From NCBI GenBank assembly GCA_012365435.1, contig GCA_012365435.1_4518.1: 64,000 nt of DNA; one strand, 5' to 3'. Under the pieces are notes generated by a model that had not been told where the DNA came from, made no database searches, and saw only the letters and a list, made by a program, of their open reading frames with translations. This document shows, piece after piece, positions 402 through 25,647 of this stretch (positions are counted from its first letter, which is position 1; each line of letters starts with the position of its first letter). The translations under genes were made by a program, and so were the position numbers. Source of the stretch: a phage.

Positions 402-2475
402 ATTTAAACGGAACCGATTCTAAATCCATTAAAGATGCTAACAATTTCAAACCTTTAGGTGCACTAGTTTTTTCTACAAATGAGGAGAACGATACCGGCT
501 CATCCGATTCGATTTCACCCGTCATAGCAACCACCTCGCCTGTTTCCATGAGAACATCACCATCATAAATGACGGCTTCATCCAACTGGTCTGAGGACAT
601 GACTTCAGCTTGAATAAATTTAAGGTTGGATTCTAAACCTGCACCGGTGTCAGATGACGCATCTGTAATTTTATTTATCTGCAAGAGAATGCCTCTAGGC
701 AAAATAATTTCTTGCTCATTAGGGTGATTACTCAACTGTCCTGGATAAATCACGTTAACTTTATGGGCGCCATCGATAGCCCATCCAACGTTAACACGGA
801 TTTGTTCTGGTGCATGCATAGCTGTTCTTACTTGACTAGGAGAAATAGTAACACCTTCGTCATTATTGTCAATGTTAAGCTCTTTGCGAACTTCTTCAGG
901 AGCAAGTCCAAGGGCAACGTTCTCTTTAAACCCACCGAAAATAATAGGAGCTAGTGAAGTGGAAACATAGTTTCTGAAGTAGAATACCTTATTTTTAACC
1001 ATTGCTTCGTAAATAGGCATTCTGATAGACTGAGCTCTATATAACGTTAGTCCTTCAGGTAAACGGTCTCCATTTAAAAACGCCGAATCAAGACCATCAA
1101 TAGCGCGTTTAACTTCATCTTCATCCGCAACATCGTAAAAATCTGGTTTATAACGACCTAACAACATATTATTGATATCGGTATACGCAGAAGAGGCATA
1201 TTCACGAATAGCTCGTTTTTCAGCAACAGAGTATTGTTTAGGGTCCCGATTCATTGTTATATTAAAGGTGCCTCTAGCCGATTCTCGTGCATAAGTATAC
1301 ATCACATTAGACAAGAACGCTGATTTACGTTGTTTCCAAGTTCTTTCAGATACTTCAGCTAAAACATCGTCAGGCAGTTGGAAATTATCACGTCTAAAAT
1401 CTTCAAACCATTCGTCTCTAATAGAGTCTGCAATTTCGTTTGCAGCTTCAACAAAAGCGGCTAATGCTTTAACAGATGTTGTTTTTTCAGTTTTAATTTT
1501 CTTAGCAAACTTTTCTAAAGTCGGCTTAATAACACTACCATAAGAAACTTCATCAGCAAATTTAAAGGATTCATCAATACGATTATAAATCTTATTTTCG
1601 ATATCAGCAACTAAAGTGCCTTTTGCTGTGGACGATGCTTGGGCTAGTACAATTTCATATGCTTCAGGAAGTAATTCGGCTGTAGCTGGGCCACTAACTT
1701 CTTTAGCAGAATTTTCATATTTCTGGAATAACTCACCTTCTTGGCGGTCAGCTTCTAAAGATTGACTTGCTGCAATAGCACGACGAGAAATTTTAGTACG
1801 AGCAATAACAGGCTTATCTTTACGTTTTTCTTCTACAGCAGCAATAGAACCAGCAATAGCCGTTTCTTTGGTGACCTTTTCACCAGTCTTTTTACTCACA
1901 TAAACTTCGCCAACATCAGAATCTACTTTCGTGTACAACTCTGTGTTAATGTTAGGGATGCCTTTAATATCTTCAATGTTGGCATTTTTACGAACCATCA
2001 TCACATAGGTGTGTTTACCTGTGAATTGATACATTGCCGACAATACTTTAAAACGACCACCAGTTTTAGTAGAAACTAAACGAGCAAGAAGAGTTTGAAG
2101 CTGCTGTCCACGTCCTTTCAATTTCTTGGTAGGGAATCGGAACAGAACTGCATCCATACGAAGAGCTTTAACCTGTTCATACACTGTGTTGAAAATGGTG
2201 TTGATTGCATCAATAGGAGCAGGACCAAGGCCATTTTTCAATTCAGCGAGATTACCCTTTTCAGACAGACTCATAATAACGACATGAGCGTATTTGTCGC
2301 CAAGTTTAACTTGTTTTACAGCGTCGCCTTCGGAAAGGTAAGAGAATAAACGAACTACGATGTTTGTATCGATATCACCAATTTTCCAGACTTGTGGAAC
2401 TTTAGCTTTAGGGTTCAAATTGACGACAGGAAGACTGCCTTCAGATTCAAACACTTCATTTAATTGTTCAGACAT
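388..2475 (-). CDS. alt: Alt-like ADP-ribosyltransferase (virion-injected), 695 aa
   Basis: Size close to T4 Alt (682 aa), position adjacent to DNA ligase as in T4; assignment by synteny and recalled similarity. Confidence 0.7.
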   Translation of the reverse strand: MSEQLNEVFESEGSLPVVNLNPKAKVPQVWKIGDIDTNIVVRLFSYLSEGDAVKQVKLGDKYAHVVIMSLSEKGNLAELKNGLGPAPIDAINTIFNTVYEQVKALRMDAVLFRFPTKKLKGRGQQLQTLLARLVSTKTGGRFKVLSAMYQFTGKHTYVMMVRKNANIEDIKGIPNINTELYTKVDSDVGEVYVSKKTGEKVTKETAIAGSIAAVEEKRKDKPVIARTKISRRAIAASQSLEADRQEGELFQKYENSAKEVSGPATAELLPEAYEIVLAQASSTAKGTLVADIENKIYNRIDESFKFADEVSYGSVIKPTLEKFAKKIKTEKTTSVKALAAFVEAANEIADSIRDEWFEDFRRDNFQLPDDVLAEVSERTWKQRKSAFLSNVMYTYARESARGTFNITMNRDPKQYSVAEKRAIREYASSAYTDINNMLLGRYKPDFYDVADEDEVKRAIDGLDSAFLNGDRLPEGLTLYRAQSIRMPIYEAMVKNKVFYFRNYVSTSLAPIIFGGFKENVALGLAPEEVRKELNIDNNDEGVTISPSQVRTAMHAPEQIRVNVGWAIDGAHKVNVIYPGQLSNHPNEQEIILPRGILLQINKITDASSDTGAGLESNLKFIQAEVMSSDQLDEAVIYDGDVLMETGEVVAMTGEIESDEPVSFSSFVEKTSAPKGLKLLASLMDLESVPFKFVQG

Positions 2476-2508
2476 AGTGTTTTCCTTTTAGTAATAATTT
2501 ATATTTAT

Positions 2509-2529
2509 GCCAAAAAGAGCCCGAAGGCT
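2509..2529 (-). terminator. Tetraloop hairpin (AGAGCC-UUCG-GGCUCU on - strand) followed by U-run
   Basis: Inverted repeat agagcccgaaggctct with A5 on + strand upstream. Confidence 0.45.
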
Positions 2530-2530
2530 C

Positions 2531-2740
2531 TTAATCCACAATCGGGAGCAAAGTACGATAAACTTCAAAATTAGGGCCTTTTTCGTACTTATCAAAATTG
2601 TCCATAAAAATATGATAGGAATCGTTATTAGGAAAATCTAATATAATCTGAGAACAAGAGGTGGAAACATCTCCACCATCCTTCTTAGCTACAATAACTG
2701 TTTCTAAATAAGCTTTCATTATAAACCTGTCTGGGACCAC
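2531..2740 (-). CDS. Hypothetical small protein (69 aa; true start may be the internal Met at MKAYLET)
   Basis: ORF between ligase and alt; overlaps ligase 3' end by 22 nt if the long start is used. Confidence 0.4.
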   Translation of the reverse strand: MVPDRFIMKAYLETVIVAKKDGGDVSTSCSQIILDFPNNDSYHIFMDNFDKYEKGPNFEVYRTLLPIVD

Positions 2741-4212
2741 GGTCCAAATACGTCTTCAAATGAATCCGCTTCTGTTTTATCAAAACGGAACCCTTTAATA
2801 ATTGGAAGGAAAATACCTACAGTACCTTCACGGCCTTTAGAATGAACCCAACCATTACATTCGCAATCAGCAATACGTCCAATCAATTTACCTTCATGAG
2901 CTTCAGCCATTAATCGTTCACGGTCTAAATCATGACGCTCATCTAAAGGAATAAGAACCTTTACACCATCAACTGTTTTATGAGTTGTATCTTTAAACCC
3001 TGAACCACAATCGGTTGTAATACGACGACAACGTGATACGAGTTCGACACCACCTAATTTGTTAGGGTCTTTAGAGTGTTCATAGTATCCTACAACTTCT
3101 AAAGCGATATCAATAACTTCTTTAAATTTAATTAGGTTCTTAGAGCGTTTGTTTTCCCAGTATGAATCACGGTTTTTAAGGATAATACCTTCAAGACCTT
3201 GGTCAACATATTTTTTATAAACCACTTTAGCTTCGTCAAGATTACGAACTAACTGATTTTCAATTGGCTCAATTCGCTTAAAGCCTTCAGCCATATTTTC
3301 AAGAGCAGCAAAACGAACATCGTATTTCTGACCTTTAATTTTGCCATCAGAGTAGACTTCATCTAAAGGAACATAGTCCCAGGCTTGAAGAACCATACCT
3401 TCCGCTTCTTTAGGAGAAATAGTCCCTTGAAGAGATTTATTTGCTAAACCATTTGAAGTGCTACGGTCTGCAACTTGTACTTCTTCGGATTCTTCATTAT
3501 CGCCAAATAAGAACGACAGGTCATTTCCTGAGCTCACAGCCTTTTTAATATCAAATGAATGATAAACTAATTCACCGTCGATTAAAACCCCATTAGGGTG
3601 TCTTTCACGAGCTTCTTTAGTCATTTCCATTAGTTCATCTGCTAATAGAGTAAGACCATGGTATTCGTTACCGGCACGAGAAAAGAATTGAACGCCATCA
3701 TCGCGAACTTCAGCGAAACAACGAGCACCATCTGCCTTTAATTGGGCAAATGCAGGCCATTTAATATTTTTAGTAATCAATTTCTCATCATATGCAGATG
3801 CTAACATCTGTGGCTGCAATTGAATAAGTCCAGGCCACACCTTATTCGCGATAGACACTGAAGCACCTACTTCAAGGTCTCGCATCATTACACGACGAAG
3901 GACTTCTACATCATCAGGTTTACCGTCAGCGATATAACCCATGAGCTCTTTAATTGCAGCATTACCAGTGAGTTTACGAGTGGCTAATGTGAACTCAATA
4001 AAATCCAACATGTCATCTAATTCAAGAAGACCATACGCTTGAGACCTTTCACCTGGTCCTGGCCATTTCTTAATATAATACTGGATACCACGTGCATATG
4101 TTAAACGATACACACGTTCAAGTAATTTGTTGTCCTTATTTTTCTTAAGGATTTCTTGTTTTGTTTTAGTAGAACCGATCGCAGCTATTTGGTTTAAAAT
4201 ATCTAAAATCAT
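2719..4212 (-). CDS. 30: ATP-dependent DNA ligase, 497 aa
   Basis: KxDG adenylation motif (KADGARCF), length and overall match to T4 gp30. Confidence 0.95.
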   Translation of the reverse strand: MILDILNQIAAIGSTKTKQEILKKNKDNKLLERVYRLTYARGIQYYIKKWPGPGERSQAYGLLELDDMLDFIEFTLATRKLTGNAAIKELMGYIADGKPDDVEVLRRVMMRDLEVGASVSIANKVWPGLIQLQPQMLASAYDEKLITKNIKWPAFAQLKADGARCFAEVRDDGVQFFSRAGNEYHGLTLLADELMEMTKEARERHPNGVLIDGELVYHSFDIKKAVSSGNDLSFLFGDNEESEEVQVADRSTSNGLANKSLQGTISPKEAEGMVLQAWDYVPLDEVYSDGKIKGQKYDVRFAALENMAEGFKRIEPIENQLVRNLDEAKVVYKKYVDQGLEGIILKNRDSYWENKRSKNLIKFKEVIDIALEVVGYYEHSKDPNKLGGVELVSRCRRITTDCGSGFKDTTHKTVDGVKVLIPLDERHDLDRERLMAEAHEGKLIGRIADCECNGWVHSKGREGTVGIFLPIIKGFRFDKTEADSFEDVFGPWSQTGL

Positions 4213-7303: not shown

Positions 7304-7672
7304 TTATGCAACTTTAATCCAATTGTCTAAATTTAAAACACCTTTGGCTTTCATTTTTTCGATCAGGTTATCTGCTGTAATGCGTCCATTTTGATACCAT
7401 GTAACATCTTCAGAGTAACCAGTTTCTTCGTCAACATATGTTTCTGAACGAATTTTACCGGTAATAATAGTTTTTAATTCGTACGTGTCACCTGTGAAAA
7501 AGTTTGCTAACACAATTTTCCAAGAGAAATCATCAGAAGGACCTTCAGGGGTCATACAACTTACGATCTCAAATTGCTCTTTGTATAACATCCACTGGAA
7601 TTCTTTAATTTCGATAGCTTTATAACCATCGTGGTCTTTACATTTGATGTATGAGTTCAGATTGATTTTCAT
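7304..7672 (-). CDS. Hypothetical protein, 122 aa
   Basis: ORF downstream of PeSL-like promoter at 7705..7743. Confidence 0.5.
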   Translation of the reverse strand: MKINLNSYIKCKDHDGYKAIEIKEFQWMLYKEQFEIVSCMTPEGPSDDFSWKIVLANFFTGDTYELKTIITGKIRSETYVDEETGYSEDVTWYQNGRITADNLIEKMKAKGVLNLDNWIKVA

Positions 7673-7704
7673 TTTGTTCTCCAGGTTGTTTTATTGATTA
7701 GGTG

Positions 7705-7743
7705 GTACAAGTCTATAGTAACACATCCTACAGGAGAGTAAAC
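7705..7743 (-). promoter_or_regulatory. Early promoter (PeSL-like)
   Basis: - strand GTTTAC, 17 nt, TACTAT. Confidence 0.5.
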
Positions 7744-7783
7744 ATCTTTTTAAACTTTTTTTGCCCTAAACGCACAAAAGGGA

Positions 7784-7801
7784 GACCGAAGTCTCCCTAA
7801 A
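7784..7801 (-). terminator. UUCG-tetraloop hairpin terminator
   Basis: gggagaccgaagtctccc; on - strand followed by UUUUGUGCGUUU. Confidence 0.55.
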
Positions 7802-7802
7802 A

Positions 7803-7982
7803 TTATGCAACAACCTTTCCAAAACGAGAAGCATCATCTCGAAGAACTGCACGTGCTCTGCGCATGATCTTCTCAACTGTTTGATTAATACGAGAGTTCG
7901 ACCCACGCTTGTATCCAGCGCGTTTAGAGGTACCATCAACTTTCTTTTCAACTGCTTTCTTTGCTTTAGCTTGTTTTGCCAT
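7803..7982 (-). CDS. Small highly basic protein, 59 aa (MAKQAKAKKAVEKK...)
   Basis: ORF below the 60-aa cutoff of the supplied track; SD-like aagaga upstream, terminator hairpin directly downstream; conflicts with listed ORF 7766..7951 in another frame. Confidence 0.5.
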   Translation of the reverse strand: MAKQAKAKKAVEKKVDGTSKRAGYKRGSNSRINQTVEKIMRRARAVLRDDASRFGKVVA

Positions 7983-7994
7983 TATAAATTCTCT

Positions 7995-8222
7995 TTAAAT
8001 GAAAATGCAGGACTTATTGACATTGCCTGCGCAAGCCCTCAAGGGGAACATAGGTTTTGGGTATTTAACGACAGGATAACCATAAACCTCGTCATCATAC
8101 CACCAAGACTTACACAGATAACACTTTTCTGACGCATGATAGTAACATTCAAGAGGTACACCGTAAAATTGTCGGGGCGGTACTTCTAAAACATACCGAT
8201 TCGCAAATCGATAATCAGACAA
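7995..8222 (-). CDS. Hypothetical Cys-rich protein, 75 aa
   Basis: ORF only; several Cys and Tyr/Trp. Confidence 0.35.
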   Translation of the reverse strand: MSDYRFANRYVLEVPPRQFYGVPLECYYHASEKCYLCKSWWYDDEVYGYPVVKYPKPMFPLRACAGNVNKSCIFI

Positions 8223-8244
8223 TTCGACGGCTCCTCGATTTAAC

Positions 8245-8493
8245 TTACTTCAGGGTAATAACAAAATGACGAACTGCTTTGCGTGCTGCAGAAGCCAGAG
8301 GCTTAGCATATTTCAATTCATCTTTAGCTTCCAGTTCAGAAGCCAGAGTAGCCTGAGCAGGATTCAGATGTTTGAAATATCGCAGGATTTCCAGTGCTTC
8401 GGCTTCAACATCAATTGACGCACCGTAGTTTTCGTGACCGTTATTCCATGCGTTTCGTTGCAGTTCAAGAGCGTGTTGTAATTGTTTAATCAT
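8245..8493 (-). CDS. rIII: Lysis inhibition accessory protein rIII, 82 aa
   Basis: Length and sequence match to T4 rIII, located just downstream of gene 31. Confidence 0.85.
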   Translation of the reverse strand: MIKQLQHALELQRNAWNNGHENYGASIDVEAEALEILRYFKHLNPAQATLASELEAKDELKYAKPLASAARKAVRHFVITLK

Positions 8494-8609
8494 TTTAAAT
8501 TCTCAATTCGAGATAATATTTAGTAGCCACGTTCGTCTGAATTTCACCTTCTTTCGACAAGTCTCTCAGTTGTAGGCTACCGCTTAGAAGAGTGTTCTCT
8601 TCATATAGT

Positions 8610-9887: not shown

Positions 9888-10879
9888 TATTGAACCTTAT
9901 TAATATAAGTTAACAGCTCTTTAGTTTGTTCCCAACTGATGCACGCATCGGTAACGGAAACGCCATAGGACATATTATCAGAAATTTTTTGATTTCCTTC
10001 ATGTAGGAACGATTCTATCATAATTCCTTTGACCAAATCATTAGCTGCTAAATTTTTACCAATACCAATTTGATTGCTATAATGCCCATCAGCGTTTGCA
10101 TGGCTACAGTCAACCATTACATAATGATTCAGACCTACTGCCCTTGCTTTGTTAGAAGCTTCTTGAATATCAGAAGAATGATAGTTCGGGCCGTTGGTCC
10201 CGCCACGCAATACGATATGCGTATTCTGATTACCTTCAGCTTCAACAATGCCTACAGTACCATCGACGTCCATACCCATATACCGATGAGGCCAGGCGGC
10301 ACTATACATCGCGTCTGTAGCTACTTTAATAGAACCATTGGTTGCGTTCTTGAAGCCTACGCACATCGGTAGACCTGAAGCAATTTCACGATGTGTCTGA
10401 CTTTCAGTCGTACGGGCGCCAATAGCAACCCATGAGAAAATACCAGAAAGATACTTAATCGTGAATGGGTCTAATACTTCAGTTGCTAATGGAAGTCCCA
10501 TACGTAGAAGTTTACGACACAATGTTCGTGCAACTATAAGACCGTGGTTCATATCAAAACTTCCGTCAAGATATGGATCATTTACAAGACCTTTCCAACC
10601 TACGGTAGTTCGAGGCTTTTCAAAATAAACGCGCATCACTAACAGAACATTAGGAAGACGAGTTTGAAGTTCAGCCAGACGTTTGCCGTATTCAACAGCA
10701 GCAATAGGGTCATGAATTGAACAAGGACCTACAACAATAAGTTTGCGTGGGTCTTCACCGTTCATAATCGAATTAACTTGTTCGCGATGAGAAGCCACTT
10801 GTGATGCGTAAGCTTCCGACAAAGGAATAATCTCAGCCAGTTCTTTTGGAGAAATAAGTTTTCTGATGACAGGTAACAT
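9887..10879 (-). CDS. 3-deoxy-D-arabino-heptulosonate-7-phosphate (DAHP) synthase, class I (AroG-like), 330 aa
   Basis: GPCSIHDP, MRVYFEKPRTTVGWKGL and AIGARTTESQ.HRE.ASGL blocks nearly identical to E. coli AroG. Confidence 0.85.
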   Translation of the reverse strand: MLPVIRKLISPKELAEIIPLSEAYASQVASHREQVNSIMNGEDPRKLIVVGPCSIHDPIAAVEYGKRLAELQTRLPNVLLVMRVYFEKPRTTVGWKGLVNDPYLDGSFDMNHGLIVARTLCRKLLRMGLPLATEVLDPFTIKYLSGIFSWVAIGARTTESQTHREIASGLPMCVGFKNATNGSIKVATDAMYSAAWPHRYMGMDVDGTVGIVEAEGNQNTHIVLRGGTNGPNYHSSDIQEASNKARAVGLNHYVMVDCSHANADGHYSNQIGIGKNLAANDLVKGIMIESFLHEGNQKISDNMSYGVSVTDACISWEQTKELLTYINKVQ

Positions 10880-10999
10880 AACAATCCTTAGGAGATATAA
10901 ACAGATTCTGATTCAACAATACCTTTAACCGGATTAGATAGGCTAAGTTGGTAGTGCTCAGATTTATGACCATTCTCGATAGTAATGAGATAGCTCTCA

Positions 11000-16445: not shown

Positions 16446-17624
16446 TTAGAAATATTTTTTGAACGAATTGATTACATTTTGGTCTACATCATTATCAATT
16501 TGTGCGACAAGATAAGAACTGATTTCAACTTCCTGAGGAGCTGCTTGAACTAAATCTGAGTTCAGATATTCACGAATCCAAGGATACGGATGCTTGGTCG
16601 GAGCATCAGTGATTGGGCATGGCAAACCGCACTGTTTCATACGAGACACAGTCAAGTAATCAACAAAAGCACACATACTCTGCGTATTGATACCTGGACA
16701 TGTACCATCTTTAAAGAGGTGTGCAGCCCATTCCTTCTCTTGACTATTTACTTCCATAAAGATATCTACTGCTTCTTGCTCACACTCTTTAGCAATTTGA
16801 ACCCATTCATCCCCATCAACACCAAGTTGGAGTTGTCGAATAATGTACTGAGTGCCTTTAAGGTGGAGTTGTTCGTCACGAGCGATAAACTTCATAATCT
16901 TTGCATTACCTTCCATGATTTCCATGTTCTTATGGAAGTTGAAAGTACATGCAAATGATACGTAAAAACGAATAGCTTCTAAGGCGTTAATAACGTGTAA
17001 GCAGAGATAAAGAGACTTCATTAATGCACGTTTACATTCTTCCACATGCATAAGACTATTTGAATATGCATCCAAATCATATTCATTTTCGGAAAAACAT
17101 TTAAAAATTTCTTTAGCATTTTCCCATTCACGTGTTTTAACTAGAACATCATCGTAATATTTACCTATTGATTCAGCTCGTTTCATGATTGCTTCGTCTA
17201 ATACAATCTCATCAAATACCTTCGATGGATCAGTATAAAGATTTCGCATGATATGAGTATATGAACGAGAGTGAATGGTTTCACTGAATGTCCATGTAGC
17301 AACCCATGTATCTAATGAAGGGTCGGAAAGCAATGCCATAAGTACCGCAGATGGTGCCCTGCCTTGGATAGAATCCAATAATGATTGATACTTAAGGTTG
17401 TTCGTAAAGATGTTCTGTTGGAACTGTGGAAGCTTATTGAACTGCGCAGAGTCCAACATCAAGTTTACCTCTTCAGGGCGCCAAAAAAACGACAATTGCT
17501 TTTCAATAAGCTCTTCAAAAACTTTATGGCGTTGAATATCGTAACGCGCAAGGCCAAGACCGGAACCAAAGAACATTGGTTCATTCAAAACATCAACTTT
17601 TTGGGTATTAAAAACTGTACTCAT
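16446..17624 (-). CDS. nrdB: Ribonucleotide reductase small subunit (class Ia), 392 aa, uninterrupted
   Basis: Di-iron/tyrosyl radical protein features, length near T4 NrdB; no intron. Confidence 0.93.
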   Translation of the reverse strand: MSTVFNTQKVDVLNEPMFFGSGLGLARYDIQRHKVFEELIEKQLSFFWRPEEVNLMLDSAQFNKLPQFQQNIFTNNLKYQSLLDSIQGRAPSAVLMALLSDPSLDTWVATWTFSETIHSRSYTHIMRNLYTDPSKVFDEIVLDEAIMKRAESIGKYYDDVLVKTREWENAKEIFKCFSENEYDLDAYSNSLMHVEECKRALMKSLYLCLHVINALEAIRFYVSFACTFNFHKNMEIMEGNAKIMKFIARDEQLHLKGTQYIIRQLQLGVDGDEWVQIAKECEQEAVDIFMEVNSQEKEWAAHLFKDGTCPGINTQSMCAFVDYLTVSRMKQCGLPCPITDAPTKHPYPWIREYLNSDLVQAAPQEVEISSYLVAQIDNDVDQNVINSFKKYF

Positions 17625-17674
17625 TATATTCTCTCAATAGTGACTCATCCATGAGTCAATTATAAACAAAATTC

Positions 17675-19930: not shown

Positions 19931-19989
19931 ATATTCCTCAGTATAGGTTGATAGACATTACTCCAAACGGGATAGTATTTATCCCGTTA

Positions 19990-20017
19990 ATTTATTATAC
20001 ACTTTTAAACTGAAGCG
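19990..20017 (-). promoter_or_regulatory. Possible MotA-dependent middle promoter upstream of nrdA
   Basis: - strand AACGCTTCA (near MotA box TGCTTtA) 11-12 nt upstream of TATAAT. Confidence 0.3.
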
Positions 20018-20272
20018 TTAATTATCCTCAGCAATAATTTCTTCATATTCTTTAGGAGTCAAGACTGTAATATCGAAATAAACCAGAGGTTCTTTTTCCA
20101 TACCGAATCCACCACAGAATTCACGATATTCATAAATTCGTTCATGTGAATGGCAAATGAATCGTTCACCTTTAACTGTGATTTCACTATTCGGTGAAGG
20201 GATATCCAGTTCACTTGGATTTTTCATTTCAAAAATTGTGGTGCCATATGAATTAATAAAACGTAAAATCAT
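20018..20272 (-). CDS. Hypothetical protein, 84 aa
   Basis: ORF between td and nrdA. Confidence 0.5.
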   Translation of the reverse strand: MILRFINSYGTTIFEMKNPSELDIPSPNSEITVKGERFICHSHERIYEYREFCGGFGMEKEPLVYFDITVLTPKEYEEIIAEDN

Positions 20273-20273
20273 T

Positions 20274-20585
20274 TTATACCGCCATTTTAGCTTTGATAGC
20301 TGGGTGTGATTCGTAATTTTTAAGAATAAAGTCTTTAGGACGAAGTTTTAATACATATTCGATTTGTTCTTCGGTTGTTAGATGCCTAAATTTGTATGGT
20401 AATCCGTTAATAACTAATTCACACAGTTCTTTAGGCTCACGACGTAAAACTTCTTTGCATTGCTCTACGTGGTTGCTGTAGATATGCGTGTTGCCGCCTG
20501 AGAATACTAAATCACCCGGGATAAGATTACACATCTTAGCTACAATATGAGTCAAGGCAGCGTACGAGGCAATGTTGAACGGTAG
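20274..20585 (-). CDS. td: Thymidylate synthase, exon 2 (103 codons plus stop)
   Basis: Translation LPFNIASYA... continues TS after exon 1; the ATG at 20586..20588 is the 3' end of the intron, as in T4. Confidence 0.9.
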   Translation of the reverse strand, partial: LPFNIASYAALTHIVAKMCNLIPGDLVFSGGNTHIYSNHVEQCKEVLRREPKELCELVINGLPYKFRHLTTEEQIEYVLKLRPKDFILKNYESHPAIKAKMAV

Positions 20586-21601
20586 CATTATGTTCAGATA
20601 AGGTCGTTAATCTTATCCCGGAATTATATCCAGCTGCATGTCACCATGCAGAGCAGACTATATCTCCAACTTGTTAAAGCAAGTTGTCTATCGTTTCGAG
20701 TCACTTGACCCTACTCCCTAAAGGGATAGTCGTTAGGCATTTATGTAGAACCAATTCCACTTATCAGATTTTACACGGTAAGTAACTAATCCTGATGAAA
20801 TTTCAAAATGTCTAGCCGCATCGGCTGCACATTCAAAAATAATCCCATCGCATGAAATCTTTTTGATGTTAGCTGGCTTTTTGCCTTTCATCTTTTCAGA
20901 TAGTTTAGTTTTAGTTTTTTCTGAATGTTTGTGATTAAAGAACGGGTTATTTTCACCTGAACGTTTTCGGCACTTTCCACAAGTATCAGCCGAAGATGGT
21001 ATGCGAACACCGCATTTACAAAACTTGTGGTTTTCTGGATTCCATCGGCCATTTTTACTTCCGTGTTTACCATAAAGAGCTTTCCGACCATCAGGACCAA
21101 GCTTAAGCATCTTAGCTTTAACAGTTTCAGCTCGTTTCTTAGCAATTTCTTCTTTTAATGGATGATTTGAAAGCACATCGCCAAAAGACGCATCAGCAAT
21201 ATTATATCCATTAATTTTAGAATTTAGCTCTTTAATCCAAAAATTTTCTCGTTCAATAATCAAATCTTTCTCATATGGAATTTCTTCCAGTACAGAGCAT
21301 TCAAAAACATTACCATGTTTATTAAAAGACCTTTGAAATTTTATAGAAGAGTGAACACCGTTTTCAAGGTCTTTAAAATGTCTCTTCCATCTTTTCTCAA
21401 AATCTTTAGCACTTCCAACATACACTTTACCGTTTAAAGTGTTTTTAATCTGATAAATTCCGCTTTTCATAAACACCTCTTTTTATATAGAAGTATTTAT
21501 TAAAGGGTAGTCCTACAATTTAGCACGGGATTGTCTACTAGAGAGGTCCCCCGTTTAGATAGATTACAAGTATAAGTCACCTTATACCTAGGCCTAAATT
21601 A
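20586..21601 (-). mobile_element. Group I self-splicing intron in td (1016 nt)
   Basis: 5' intron sequence TAATTTAGGCCT.GGTATAAGGTGACTTATACTTGTAATCTATCTAAACGGGG matches the T4 td intron start; exon junction restores a 286-aa TS; contains I-TevI ORF. Confidence 0.9.
20733..21470 (-). CDS. GIY-YIG homing endonuclease I-TevI, 245 aa
   Basis: MKSGIYQIKNTLNGKVYVGSAKDFEKRWKRH GIY-YIG N-terminus and C-terminal zinc finger/DNA-binding region; near-identical to T4 I-TevI. Confidence 0.92.
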   Translation of the reverse strand: MKSGIYQIKNTLNGKVYVGSAKDFEKRWKRHFKDLENGVHSSIKFQRSFNKHGNVFECSVLEEIPYEKDLIIERENFWIKELNSKINGYNIADASFGDVLSNHPLKEEIAKKRAETVKAKMLKLGPDGRKALYGKHGSKNGRWNPENHKFCKCGVRIPSSADTCGKCRKRSGENNPFFNHKHSEKTKTKLSEKMKGKKPANIKKISCDGIIFECAADAARHFEISSGLVTYRVKSDKWNWFYINA

Positions 21602-22985
<1,384 letters not shown>

Positions 22986-24877: not shown

Positions 24878-24993
24878 TATATTTACCTTTATTTAGATTA
24901 TTTAATTTATTTACAGTTGGTTGCTACGACACTTATACCTCGTAGCTGGTATGATTTATTTATAAAGTAATTTTAACACACAAGAAATAAAGC
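24878..24993 (-). promoter_or_regulatory. Gene 32 leader: late promoter TATAAATA (24957..24964) plus AU-rich leader with candidate structure (autoregulatory translational operator)
   Basis: Exact TATAAATA on - strand; leader contains CUACGA...UCGUAG stem and a long A/U-rich unstructured run before the AUG, as described for T4 gene 32. Confidence 0.5.
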
Positions 24994-25647
24994 TTAATAC
25001 TTACATGATTTGATTGTTTCTATGAACAATTTCTTAGCAGCATTTCCATCGATTTGAAGTATTTTTCGATATGCCTTTAATTTGGTAGAATAATTTTGCC
25101 AGACTAAATTGTCAGTAAGTTCGTCATGCTTATCTATAATATTCAAGAATGAATCCAACAACAAGAAGGTTTCAAATGAAATTATATTGCTTTGTAGCAA
25201 TTTGAATATGTAGCTCGACTGAACGTTGTTATTATAATCAAATATCTCTTGAAGCGCACTAACTTCAACTTTCTTACTGAAATAGTAGATGTTACGTACG
25301 TCTTCGGCAAACGTCTCTTTAGCTTGTTTGAGTCGTCCAATATATTCCCTATAGAAAACTAATGCATCAGCGTCTGATATCTCACCAATCCATGCATCTT
25401 GGTTAGCAACTAAGTTACTGATGAATATCAAGGTGAGTTCCTTTAACTTATATTTCTCTGCTAGTTTCTCAAAGAAATATTTATCTCGGCGTTTTTGATA
25501 CGCATTATCCGAAACACGCATGCACCAGTTATATTTGATTACGTCATACCGACCATTAAAATGTTGTTTGCACATCAAGTATAGTTTGTATACCGATTTT
25601 CCGTTAATATAACGTTCTCCATCAGGAGGCATGCGTATTTTAATCAT
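24994..25647 (-). CDS. 59: Helicase loader gp59, 217 aa
   Basis: Same length and strong match to T4 gp59. Confidence 0.9.
   Translation of the reverse strand: MIKIRMPPDGERYINGKSVYKLYLMCKQHFNGRYDVIKYNWCMRVSDNAYQKRRDKYFFEKLAEKYKLKELTLIFISNLVANQDAWIGEISDADALVFYREYIGRLKQAKETFAEDVRNIYYFSKKVEVSALQEIFDYNNNVQSSYIFKLLQSNIISFETFLLLDSFLNIIDKHDELTDNLVWQNYSTKLKAYRKILQIDGNAAKKLFIETIKSCKY

Follow-up and report, generated by a model that had tools for sequence, protein, structure and literature searches.

The DNA analysed here, which we call the window, is a stretch of 64,000 nucleotides from a phage (contig GCA_012365435.1_4518.1), and its thymidylate synthase gene (td) is split in two by a segment with an open reading frame (ORF) of its own. 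The td intron of phage T4 and its endonuclease I-TevI are the textbook model of intron homing. This locus raises the questions of what the interrupting segment is, whether it still works as an intron and a mobile element, and how it came to lie in this td gene. Our answer is that it is very probably a functional mobile td group I intron of the T-even-type phages, residing in the td gene of a Mosigvirus.

Exon-intron boundaries of the td gene

The split gene consists of the following three parts:

21602..22150, minus strand: td exon 1, 183 codons, with C-terminal end ...QRSVDVFLG and last base U
20586..21601, minus strand: td group I intron, 1016 nt, with 5' end UAAUUUAGGCC, 3' end ...AACAUAAUG and terminal G
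20274..20585, minus strand: td exon 2, 103 codons and a stop (LPFNIAS...KMAV), beginning CUA CCG UUC (LPF)

Exon 1 ends with GAU GUU UUC UUA GGU (DVFLG) and is followed directly by UAA (21601..21599), an in-frame stop with which the intron begins. At the other end, the intron closes with AUG (20588..20586), which shares the reading frame of exon 2, and the 3'-terminal guanosine is present (...AUAAUG, with the G at 20586). The insertion site (...GGU before UAAUU... and ...AAUG before CUACC) and the length of 1016 nt are as in T4 (7555..8570 of record L001). A sequence-only reading of the window had let exon 1 end in ...VFLG before TAA, taken the ATG as the 3' end of the intron and given it the length of the T4 td intron, and these boundaries turned out to be exact to the base.

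The predicted ligated junction, between GGU and CUA, joins ...UUCUUAGGU to CUACCGUUC, and the joined exons encode 286 aa that are matched from end to end by the Pfam family Thymidylat_synt (325 bits). Judged by its sequence, the split td is interrupted by a td intron of the T4-type family, in the TuIa-type variant, which carries I-TevI and is predicted to be self-splicing.

Source phage and distribution of the intron

The source phage is an RB69-like Mosigvirus coliphage, not T4. The best genome matches over 24 kb are all Mosigvirus (LH01 and phiEC1, 97.5%; AV110, 95.9%), and so is SQ17, which matches best across the 2-kb td region (97.9%); no identical record was found among the public matches. 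The informative comparison is therefore with its intron-free close relatives and not with the intron set of T4; td is intron-free both in LH01, the closest relative overall, and in RB69, the Mosigvirus reference.

In the phage collection, a full td intron is present in about 200 records and a contiguous intron-free td junction in about 438, while a 71-nt Mosigvirus-type exon-1 probe gives a rough denominator of 91 records. The intron of the window is 99.9% identical to those of VEc20, NRG-P0074 and BEU50 and 99.8% identical to the td intron of phage TuIa (AY262157.1), and copies of this variant at 99% or more exist in at least 22 public records. Most of the sampled carriers, from Mosigvirus as well as Tequatrovirus, have an intron 99.7-99.9% identical to that of the window. 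The paper on the TuIa td intron is cited in PMC2993671.

Homing history and exon patches

The window and the Tequatrovirus VEc20 have only one difference in the 1016 nt of the intron, while their exons share 79% and 78% identity; against T4, the values are 90.5% for the intron and 79.6% and 75.6% for the exons. Since the intron is nearly identical in most sampled carriers of both genera and the exons diverge by about 21%, the spread must have been recent and horizontal. The TuIa-type variant, to which the copy of the window belongs, circulates nearly unchanged among Mosigvirus and Tequatrovirus phages, by horizontal transfer and not by long vertical descent.

In T4, I-TevI cleaves a td allele that lacks the intron at a CNNNG motif, 23/25 nt upstream of the insertion site (PMC2988022). 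When a co-infecting phage has an intron-free td, I-TevI from the intron carrier would be expected to bind around the insertion site and cut at the same distance and motif, and double-strand-break repair would transfer a copy of the intron, along with part of the flanking exons, to the cut allele. Two features of the window bear on this process:

21624..21628, minus strand: CAACG (exon positions -27..-23), a CNNNG motif and putative I-TevI cut site of intron-free alleles, from sequence reading and PMC2988022
20580..21629, minus strand: minimum span differing from LH01, consisting of nine exon markers (-28..+6) and the intron

The intron-free LH01 also has a CNNNG motif at the cleavage position (CAGAG). 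Exon 1 mismatches LH01 at -4, -16, -22, -24, -25 and -28, the next mismatch lying only at -321, and exon 2 mismatches it at +1, +3 and +6, with the next only at +72. All nine differences are synonymous, and the patch that they form brackets the insertion site and just covers the I-TevI cleavage position at -23/-25. This nine-marker patch fits the prediction of double-strand-break repair with exon co-conversion, as would be expected from horizontal homing. Together with the contrast between intron and exon identity, it bears out the suggestion that the td region is a useful marker of homing history.

The origin of the patch was considered by comparing the flanking bases in other phages. The window-type bases at -28..-16 are already present in RB69, which has no td intron, the LH01-type junction is limited to about 30 intron-free records of one subgroup, and in TB004 the intron adjoins LH01-type bases. 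Because of the bases in RB69 and TB004, the patch is not tied to one donor or direction, and the idea of an exon patch from a Tequatrovirus donor like VEc20 is weakened by them as well. The complete set of flanking exon markers of the window has an exact match in no sampled genome. The pattern is consistent with a recombination patch bracketing the intron, for which we claim no single donor or direction.

These same observations can also be read as traces of an old intron that descended vertically in this Mosigvirus lineage, and that LH01 and others lost through recombination with an intron-free allele, so that the patch marks the loss. For this reading it counts that the window-type bases are the state of an intron-free Mosigvirus, that LH01-type bases can flank the intron, and that the LH01-type junction is confined to one subgroup, and two sequences cannot give the direction of a patch. 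However, an intron identity of 99.7-99.9% across two genera with a td exon divergence of about 21% would be impossible under long vertical descent, and intron-free junctions outnumber intron-carrying ones in the records, with RB69 among the intron-free. Even with a loss in LH01, the overall spread of the element would stay horizontal. We therefore consider vertical descent with loss unlikely and keep to recent horizontal homing.

One marker deserves separate mention. The A at exon position -4 (UUA vs UUG, Leu) is common to seven of the eight sampled carriers of the intron variant, and it makes the -4 pair of P1 an A-U instead of a G.U. A private G-to-A mutation after homing is ruled out by this distribution, which makes it more likely that the base travels with the intron, as it probably does.

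Clearer tracts are found in two other phages. G2285, a Mosigvirus, carries a T4-type intron with 101 differences from that of the window, within a T4-type exon patch from about -49 to +35, while TB004, a Tequatrovirus, carries a window-type intron (5 differences) within a Mosigvirus-type patch from about -63 to +17. These two tracts are clear cases of reciprocal co-conversion between the genera and show that exchange goes both ways.

The cluster of synonymous differences at -28, -25, -24, -22, -16, +1, +3 and +6 could also go beyond neutral polymorphism and reflect selection for a recoded homing site at which I-TevI cleaves less. The cluster includes a change from CAACGC to CAGAGA at the cleavage motif and splits the window from a subgroup of Mosigvirus without the intron, about 30 genomes (LH01, ATK47 and LF82-1 among them). 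We hold such recoding to be improbable; if it were true, the window would give, with LH01, a natural near-isogenic pair, intron-plus and intron-minus, for measuring homing and resistance in the wild. As it stands, the window forms a clean natural pair with LH01, its near-twin that lacks the intron, and the pair illustrates homing-associated exon patches across phage genera.

Besides, over about 60 nt of td exon 2 (20346..20405, about +181..+240) the ungapped identity to LH01 falls to 20-23%, with flanks of 90-100%. This is another mosaic patch, which may be due to replacement of the segment or to indels that compensate each other.

The I-TevI gene and its regulation

The reading frame inside the intron and the structure in front of it are located as follows:

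20733..21470, minus strand: I-TevI gene, 245 aa and stop, 738 nt (intron nt 132-869), in the P6a loop, its 3' end overlapping P6a/P6
21469..21500, minus strand: hairpin of 12 bp sequestering the ribosome-binding site (RBS), with AGAGG inside, -13 kcal/mol, z -4.95, the T4 fold being the same

Counted from its ATG, the ORF has 245 aa, the length of T4 I-TevI, and the version of 247 aa in the ORF list results from an upstream GTG start. It contains four Pfam domains, namely GIY-YIG (PF01541, 61 bits) and the families PF22635, PF07460 and PF20987, which correspond to the linker zinc finger, the NUMOD3 helix and the C-terminal helix-turn-helix for DNA binding, so the proposal of a full-length GIY-YIG I-TevI was right. 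Residues 1-97 align with the solved catalytic domain of I-TevI (1mk0/1ln0) and residues 130-245 with its DNA-binding domain (1i3j), with all four cysteines kept. The residues Y6, Y17, R27, E75 and N90 and the four zinc-finger cysteines can all be read in the translation. The protein matches T4 I-TevI at 218 of 245 residues, and it is identical to the copies of VEc20 and SQ17, the two that were translated.

In T4, the RBS hairpin and an I-TevI operator over a late promoter delay and limit the synthesis of the endonuclease, which lets the intron fold and splice (PMC2988022). The hairpin of the window has a single substitution in its stem relative to T4 (U-A to U.G), and it adjoins AAUAAAUA, a stretch resembling the late promoter and operator that is kept between the window and T4. 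By analogy with the T4 work, the hairpin and the AAUAAAUA region would have the same regulatory role here, and the intron's own gene would yield I-TevI late in infection.

The group I ribozyme core

The ribozyme lies in two halves on either side of the ORF:

21502..21601, minus strand: 5' ribozyme half (intron nt 1-100), with internal guide sequence, P2, P3 5' strand, P4, P5, P6 and P6a 5' strand
21587..21593, minus strand: internal guide sequence GCCUAGG (intron nt 9-15), forming P1 with exon CUUAGGU (21602..21608)
20586..20750, minus strand: 3' ribozyme half (intron nt 852-1016), with P6a/P6 3' strands, P7, P7.1, P7.2, P3 3' strand, P8, P9, P9.1 and P9.2

A scan of the whole window with Rfam at the gathering score gave no group I match. 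With an E-value threshold, the model RF00028 matched only the 3' half (20634..20864, 36.1 bits vs the gathering cut-off of 50); this partial match covers most of the 3' ribozyme half, and the 5' helices are misplaced inside the ORF. The score stays below the threshold because the 738-nt ORF in the P6a loop splits the ribozyme core. For comparison, the same model gives 70.3 bits (E = 8.6e-17) for the td intron of HP3.1, which has 320 nt and naturally lacks the ORF, and once this was seen, we dropped the Rfam null as evidence against the intron. The Infernal/Rfam search that the sequence-only reading had recommended as a check is thus a false negative here, and the general point of method is that the Rfam group I model at its gathering threshold misses ORF-bearing introns.

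One of the outcomes named as refuting the intron, failure to fold as a group I intron, did not occur. With the ORF deleted, the minimum free energy (MFE) fold contains P1, P2, P3, P4, P5, P6, P6a, P7.1, P7.2, P8, P9, P9.1 and P9.2, in the window and T4 alike; P7 is missing because it is a pseudoknot, which such folds cannot show. The parts of the intron outside the ORF are well conserved with T4, with 93.9% identity over nt 1-131 (5' core and leader to the ORF) and 98.6% over nt 870-1016 (3' core after the ORF). The ten substitutions in these two parts either lie in loops or unpaired positions or turn one standard pair into another, and those in nt 1-100 (nt 6, 13, 14, 54 and 94) are all in loops or pair-preserving. 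Apart from the change in the RBS hairpin, the pair-changing substitutions are from G.U to A-U in P1 and P9.2.

We then examined covariation in six ORF-deleted td introns from three lineages (window, T4, HP3.1, Gelderlandvirus CGG4-1, Aeromonas Aes508 and Proteus phiP4-3). Over the canonical helices including P7, 95.1% of the cells are paired and 30 of 76 pairs show compensatory changes. None of 500 shuffles matched this, and slid controls reached 32-43% paired cells and 4-9 such pairs. Half of the pairs in P3 (3 of 6) are compensatory, P7 is invariant, and the U(-1).G9 pair of P1, between the last exon base U and a G of the guide, is invariant in all six introns. Covariation supports the conserved P3-P8 core including the P3/P7 pseudoknot, on a small set of sequences with only three independent lineages and with a structure that was itself derived from the same sequences. 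Taken together, every sequence-level defining feature that could be tested was found in this intron.

Splicing and cleavage can be expected from the near-identity to T4. By this analogy, td would be transcribed through the intron, and the intron RNA would fold to the group I core P1-P9.2 and excise itself, with the guanosine cofactor acting at the U.G of P1 and the terminal G marking the 3' end. Splicing would then join ...VFLG to LPFN..., giving the 286-aa enzyme.

A less favourable reading is that td is still interrupted but by a decaying relic, in which I-TevI or the ribozyme is inactive. Decay does occur in relatives, with an ORF-less intron of 320 nt in HP3.1 (record L005, 1501..1820) and one of 446 nt with a 55-aa remnant in F1 (record L007, 1501..1946), and 27 of the 245 residues in the I-TevI of the window are not those of T4. 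However, its ORF is full-length and keeps all catalytic and zinc-binding residues, and the same protein recurs in VEc20 and SQ17; all substitutions in the core preserve pairing, and an unspliceable intron would cost the phage its thymidylate synthase, although the exons of this gene are otherwise intact. A relic is thus very unlikely, and the functional intron remains our reading. The introns of HP3.1 and F1, both Tequatrovirus, represent later steps in the life cycle of a homing endonuclease, of which the window copy is the intact stage, and they can conveniently serve as natural "ORF-deleted" controls when RNA models are searched.

That there is no intron at all, but two separately translated td genes flanking a free-standing endonuclease gene, as most related GenBank records draw it, can be practically dismissed, since the remaining 278 nt of the intron, apart from the ORF, make up a covarying group I core with splice sites identical to those of T4, exon 2 lacks its own ribosome-binding site and takes its "ATG" from the 3' end of the intron, and the T4 homologue is experimentally established as self-splicing (PMC2988022).

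Those related records mostly annotate td as two "thymidylate synthase" CDSs and a "homing endonuclease". The start of exon 2 is often wrong in them, and two carry the remark "unable to determine exon/intron boundaries". Such records would be corrected by the boundaries found here, with td as one spliced CDS.

It was also observed that the 3' core P7-P9 (20586..20750) has 70-85% nucleotide similarity to stretches of unrelated phages (T7-like Yersinia, Felixounavirus, T5-like, Pectobacterium, Pseudomonas and Campylobacter phages) that adjoin genes of the HNH or endonuclease VII-like kind. Presumably, further group I introns of this subgroup lie there in different genes.

Comparison with known td introns

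The T4 td intron is a group I intron of subgroup IA2. The intron of the window resembles it in the gene, the insertion site (after the Gly183 codon), the length of 1016 nt, the set of helices, the ORF within the P6a loop whose 3' end overlaps the core, the RBS hairpin and the late-promoter-like region, although T4 belongs to another genus. The alignment to T4 that had been proposed as a check yields 90.5% identity for the intron and, for the ORF, 88.3% at the nucleotide level and 218 of 245 residues in the protein. The guide sequence is GCCUAGG in the window and GCCUGAG in T4, and exon position -4 is A in the window and G in T4; P1 therefore has two wobble pairs in the window and three in T4.

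The td intron of TuIa and its copies (VEc20, NRG-P0074, SQ17, the AV1xx phages and others) are closest, with 99.7-99.9% identity over 1016 nt, that is, one to three nucleotide differences from the window, such as at intron nt 614. More distant are the td introns of Aeromonas phage Aes508 (record L008, about 1760..2810) and Proteus phage phiP4-3 (record L009, about 1757..2811), which have a homologous core, with numerous compensatory changes, and in the same loop an ORF of the GIY-YIG (I-TevI-like) type. Unlike the intron of the window, these two are inserted 21 nt upstream, after the ...QR codons and near the I-TevI cut, with a guide sequence adapted to their own exon and a larger P7.1/P7.2 region. 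The offset resembles the known 21-bp offset between the target introns of I-TevI and I-BmoI.

The window's td intron and its I-TevI are therefore real but ordinary and already known, and nothing in them departs from the known system. The variant has been in GenBank since the TuIa entry (2003-04) and occurs in at least 22 phage genomes, so it has little weight as a discovery.

nrdB and neighbouring genes

The second gene that carries an intron in T4 was also located in the window:

16446..17624, minus strand: nrdB, 392 aa, uninterrupted, with the equivalent of the T4 intron site between 16948 and 16949

Alignment to the T4 nrdB gene leaves a single gap of 598 nt, on the T4 side, with T4 positions 664 and 1263 corresponding to positions 676 and 677 of the window gene, and nrdB of the window is therefore continuous at the T4 intron site. 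This agrees with the earlier observation that nrdB is uninterrupted. The conclusion drawn from it, that the intron content is mosaic relative to T4, holds in that the td intron is present and nrdB is intron-free, but T4 is the less informative comparator for a Mosigvirus. VEc20 also has the td intron and, as annotated, an uninterrupted nrdB. The combination is reportedly the classic pattern of T2 and T6, and the window is therefore not unusual in this respect.

The T4 nrdB intron with I-TevIII, which lies in the same gene cluster as td in T4 and is absent from the window, is nearly full length in 118 records. According to PMC2790892, in T4 it is mobilised in trans by mobE. In the lineage of the window, nrdB may never have been hit, or may no longer carry the intron. 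When all ORFs of the window were searched by phmmer, no further relatives of I-TevIII, MobE, SegG or the VEc20 nrdA-nrdB endonuclease were found. The third intron host of T4, nrdD, presumably lies outside the window, going by T4 gene order.

Several other differences from T4 were seen around these genes. The window has no mobE, the spacing between nrdA and nrdB being only 50 bp (17625..17674), and no nrdA.1; between td and nrdA there is only an nrdA.2-like DUF5496 ORF (20018..20272), next to the region 19931..20017. Between genes 59 and 32 (24878..24996), segG is apparently missing, with no SegG homologue there and none annotated in the nearest relatives. Besides, an ORF of 341 aa on the minus strand at 9890..10912 is matched by Pfam DAHP_synth_1 (252 bits) and encodes a DAHP synthase of the aromatic amino-acid pathway. 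To our knowledge, this gene is not among the T4 genes of the corresponding region, but it is also annotated in related Mosigvirus genomes.
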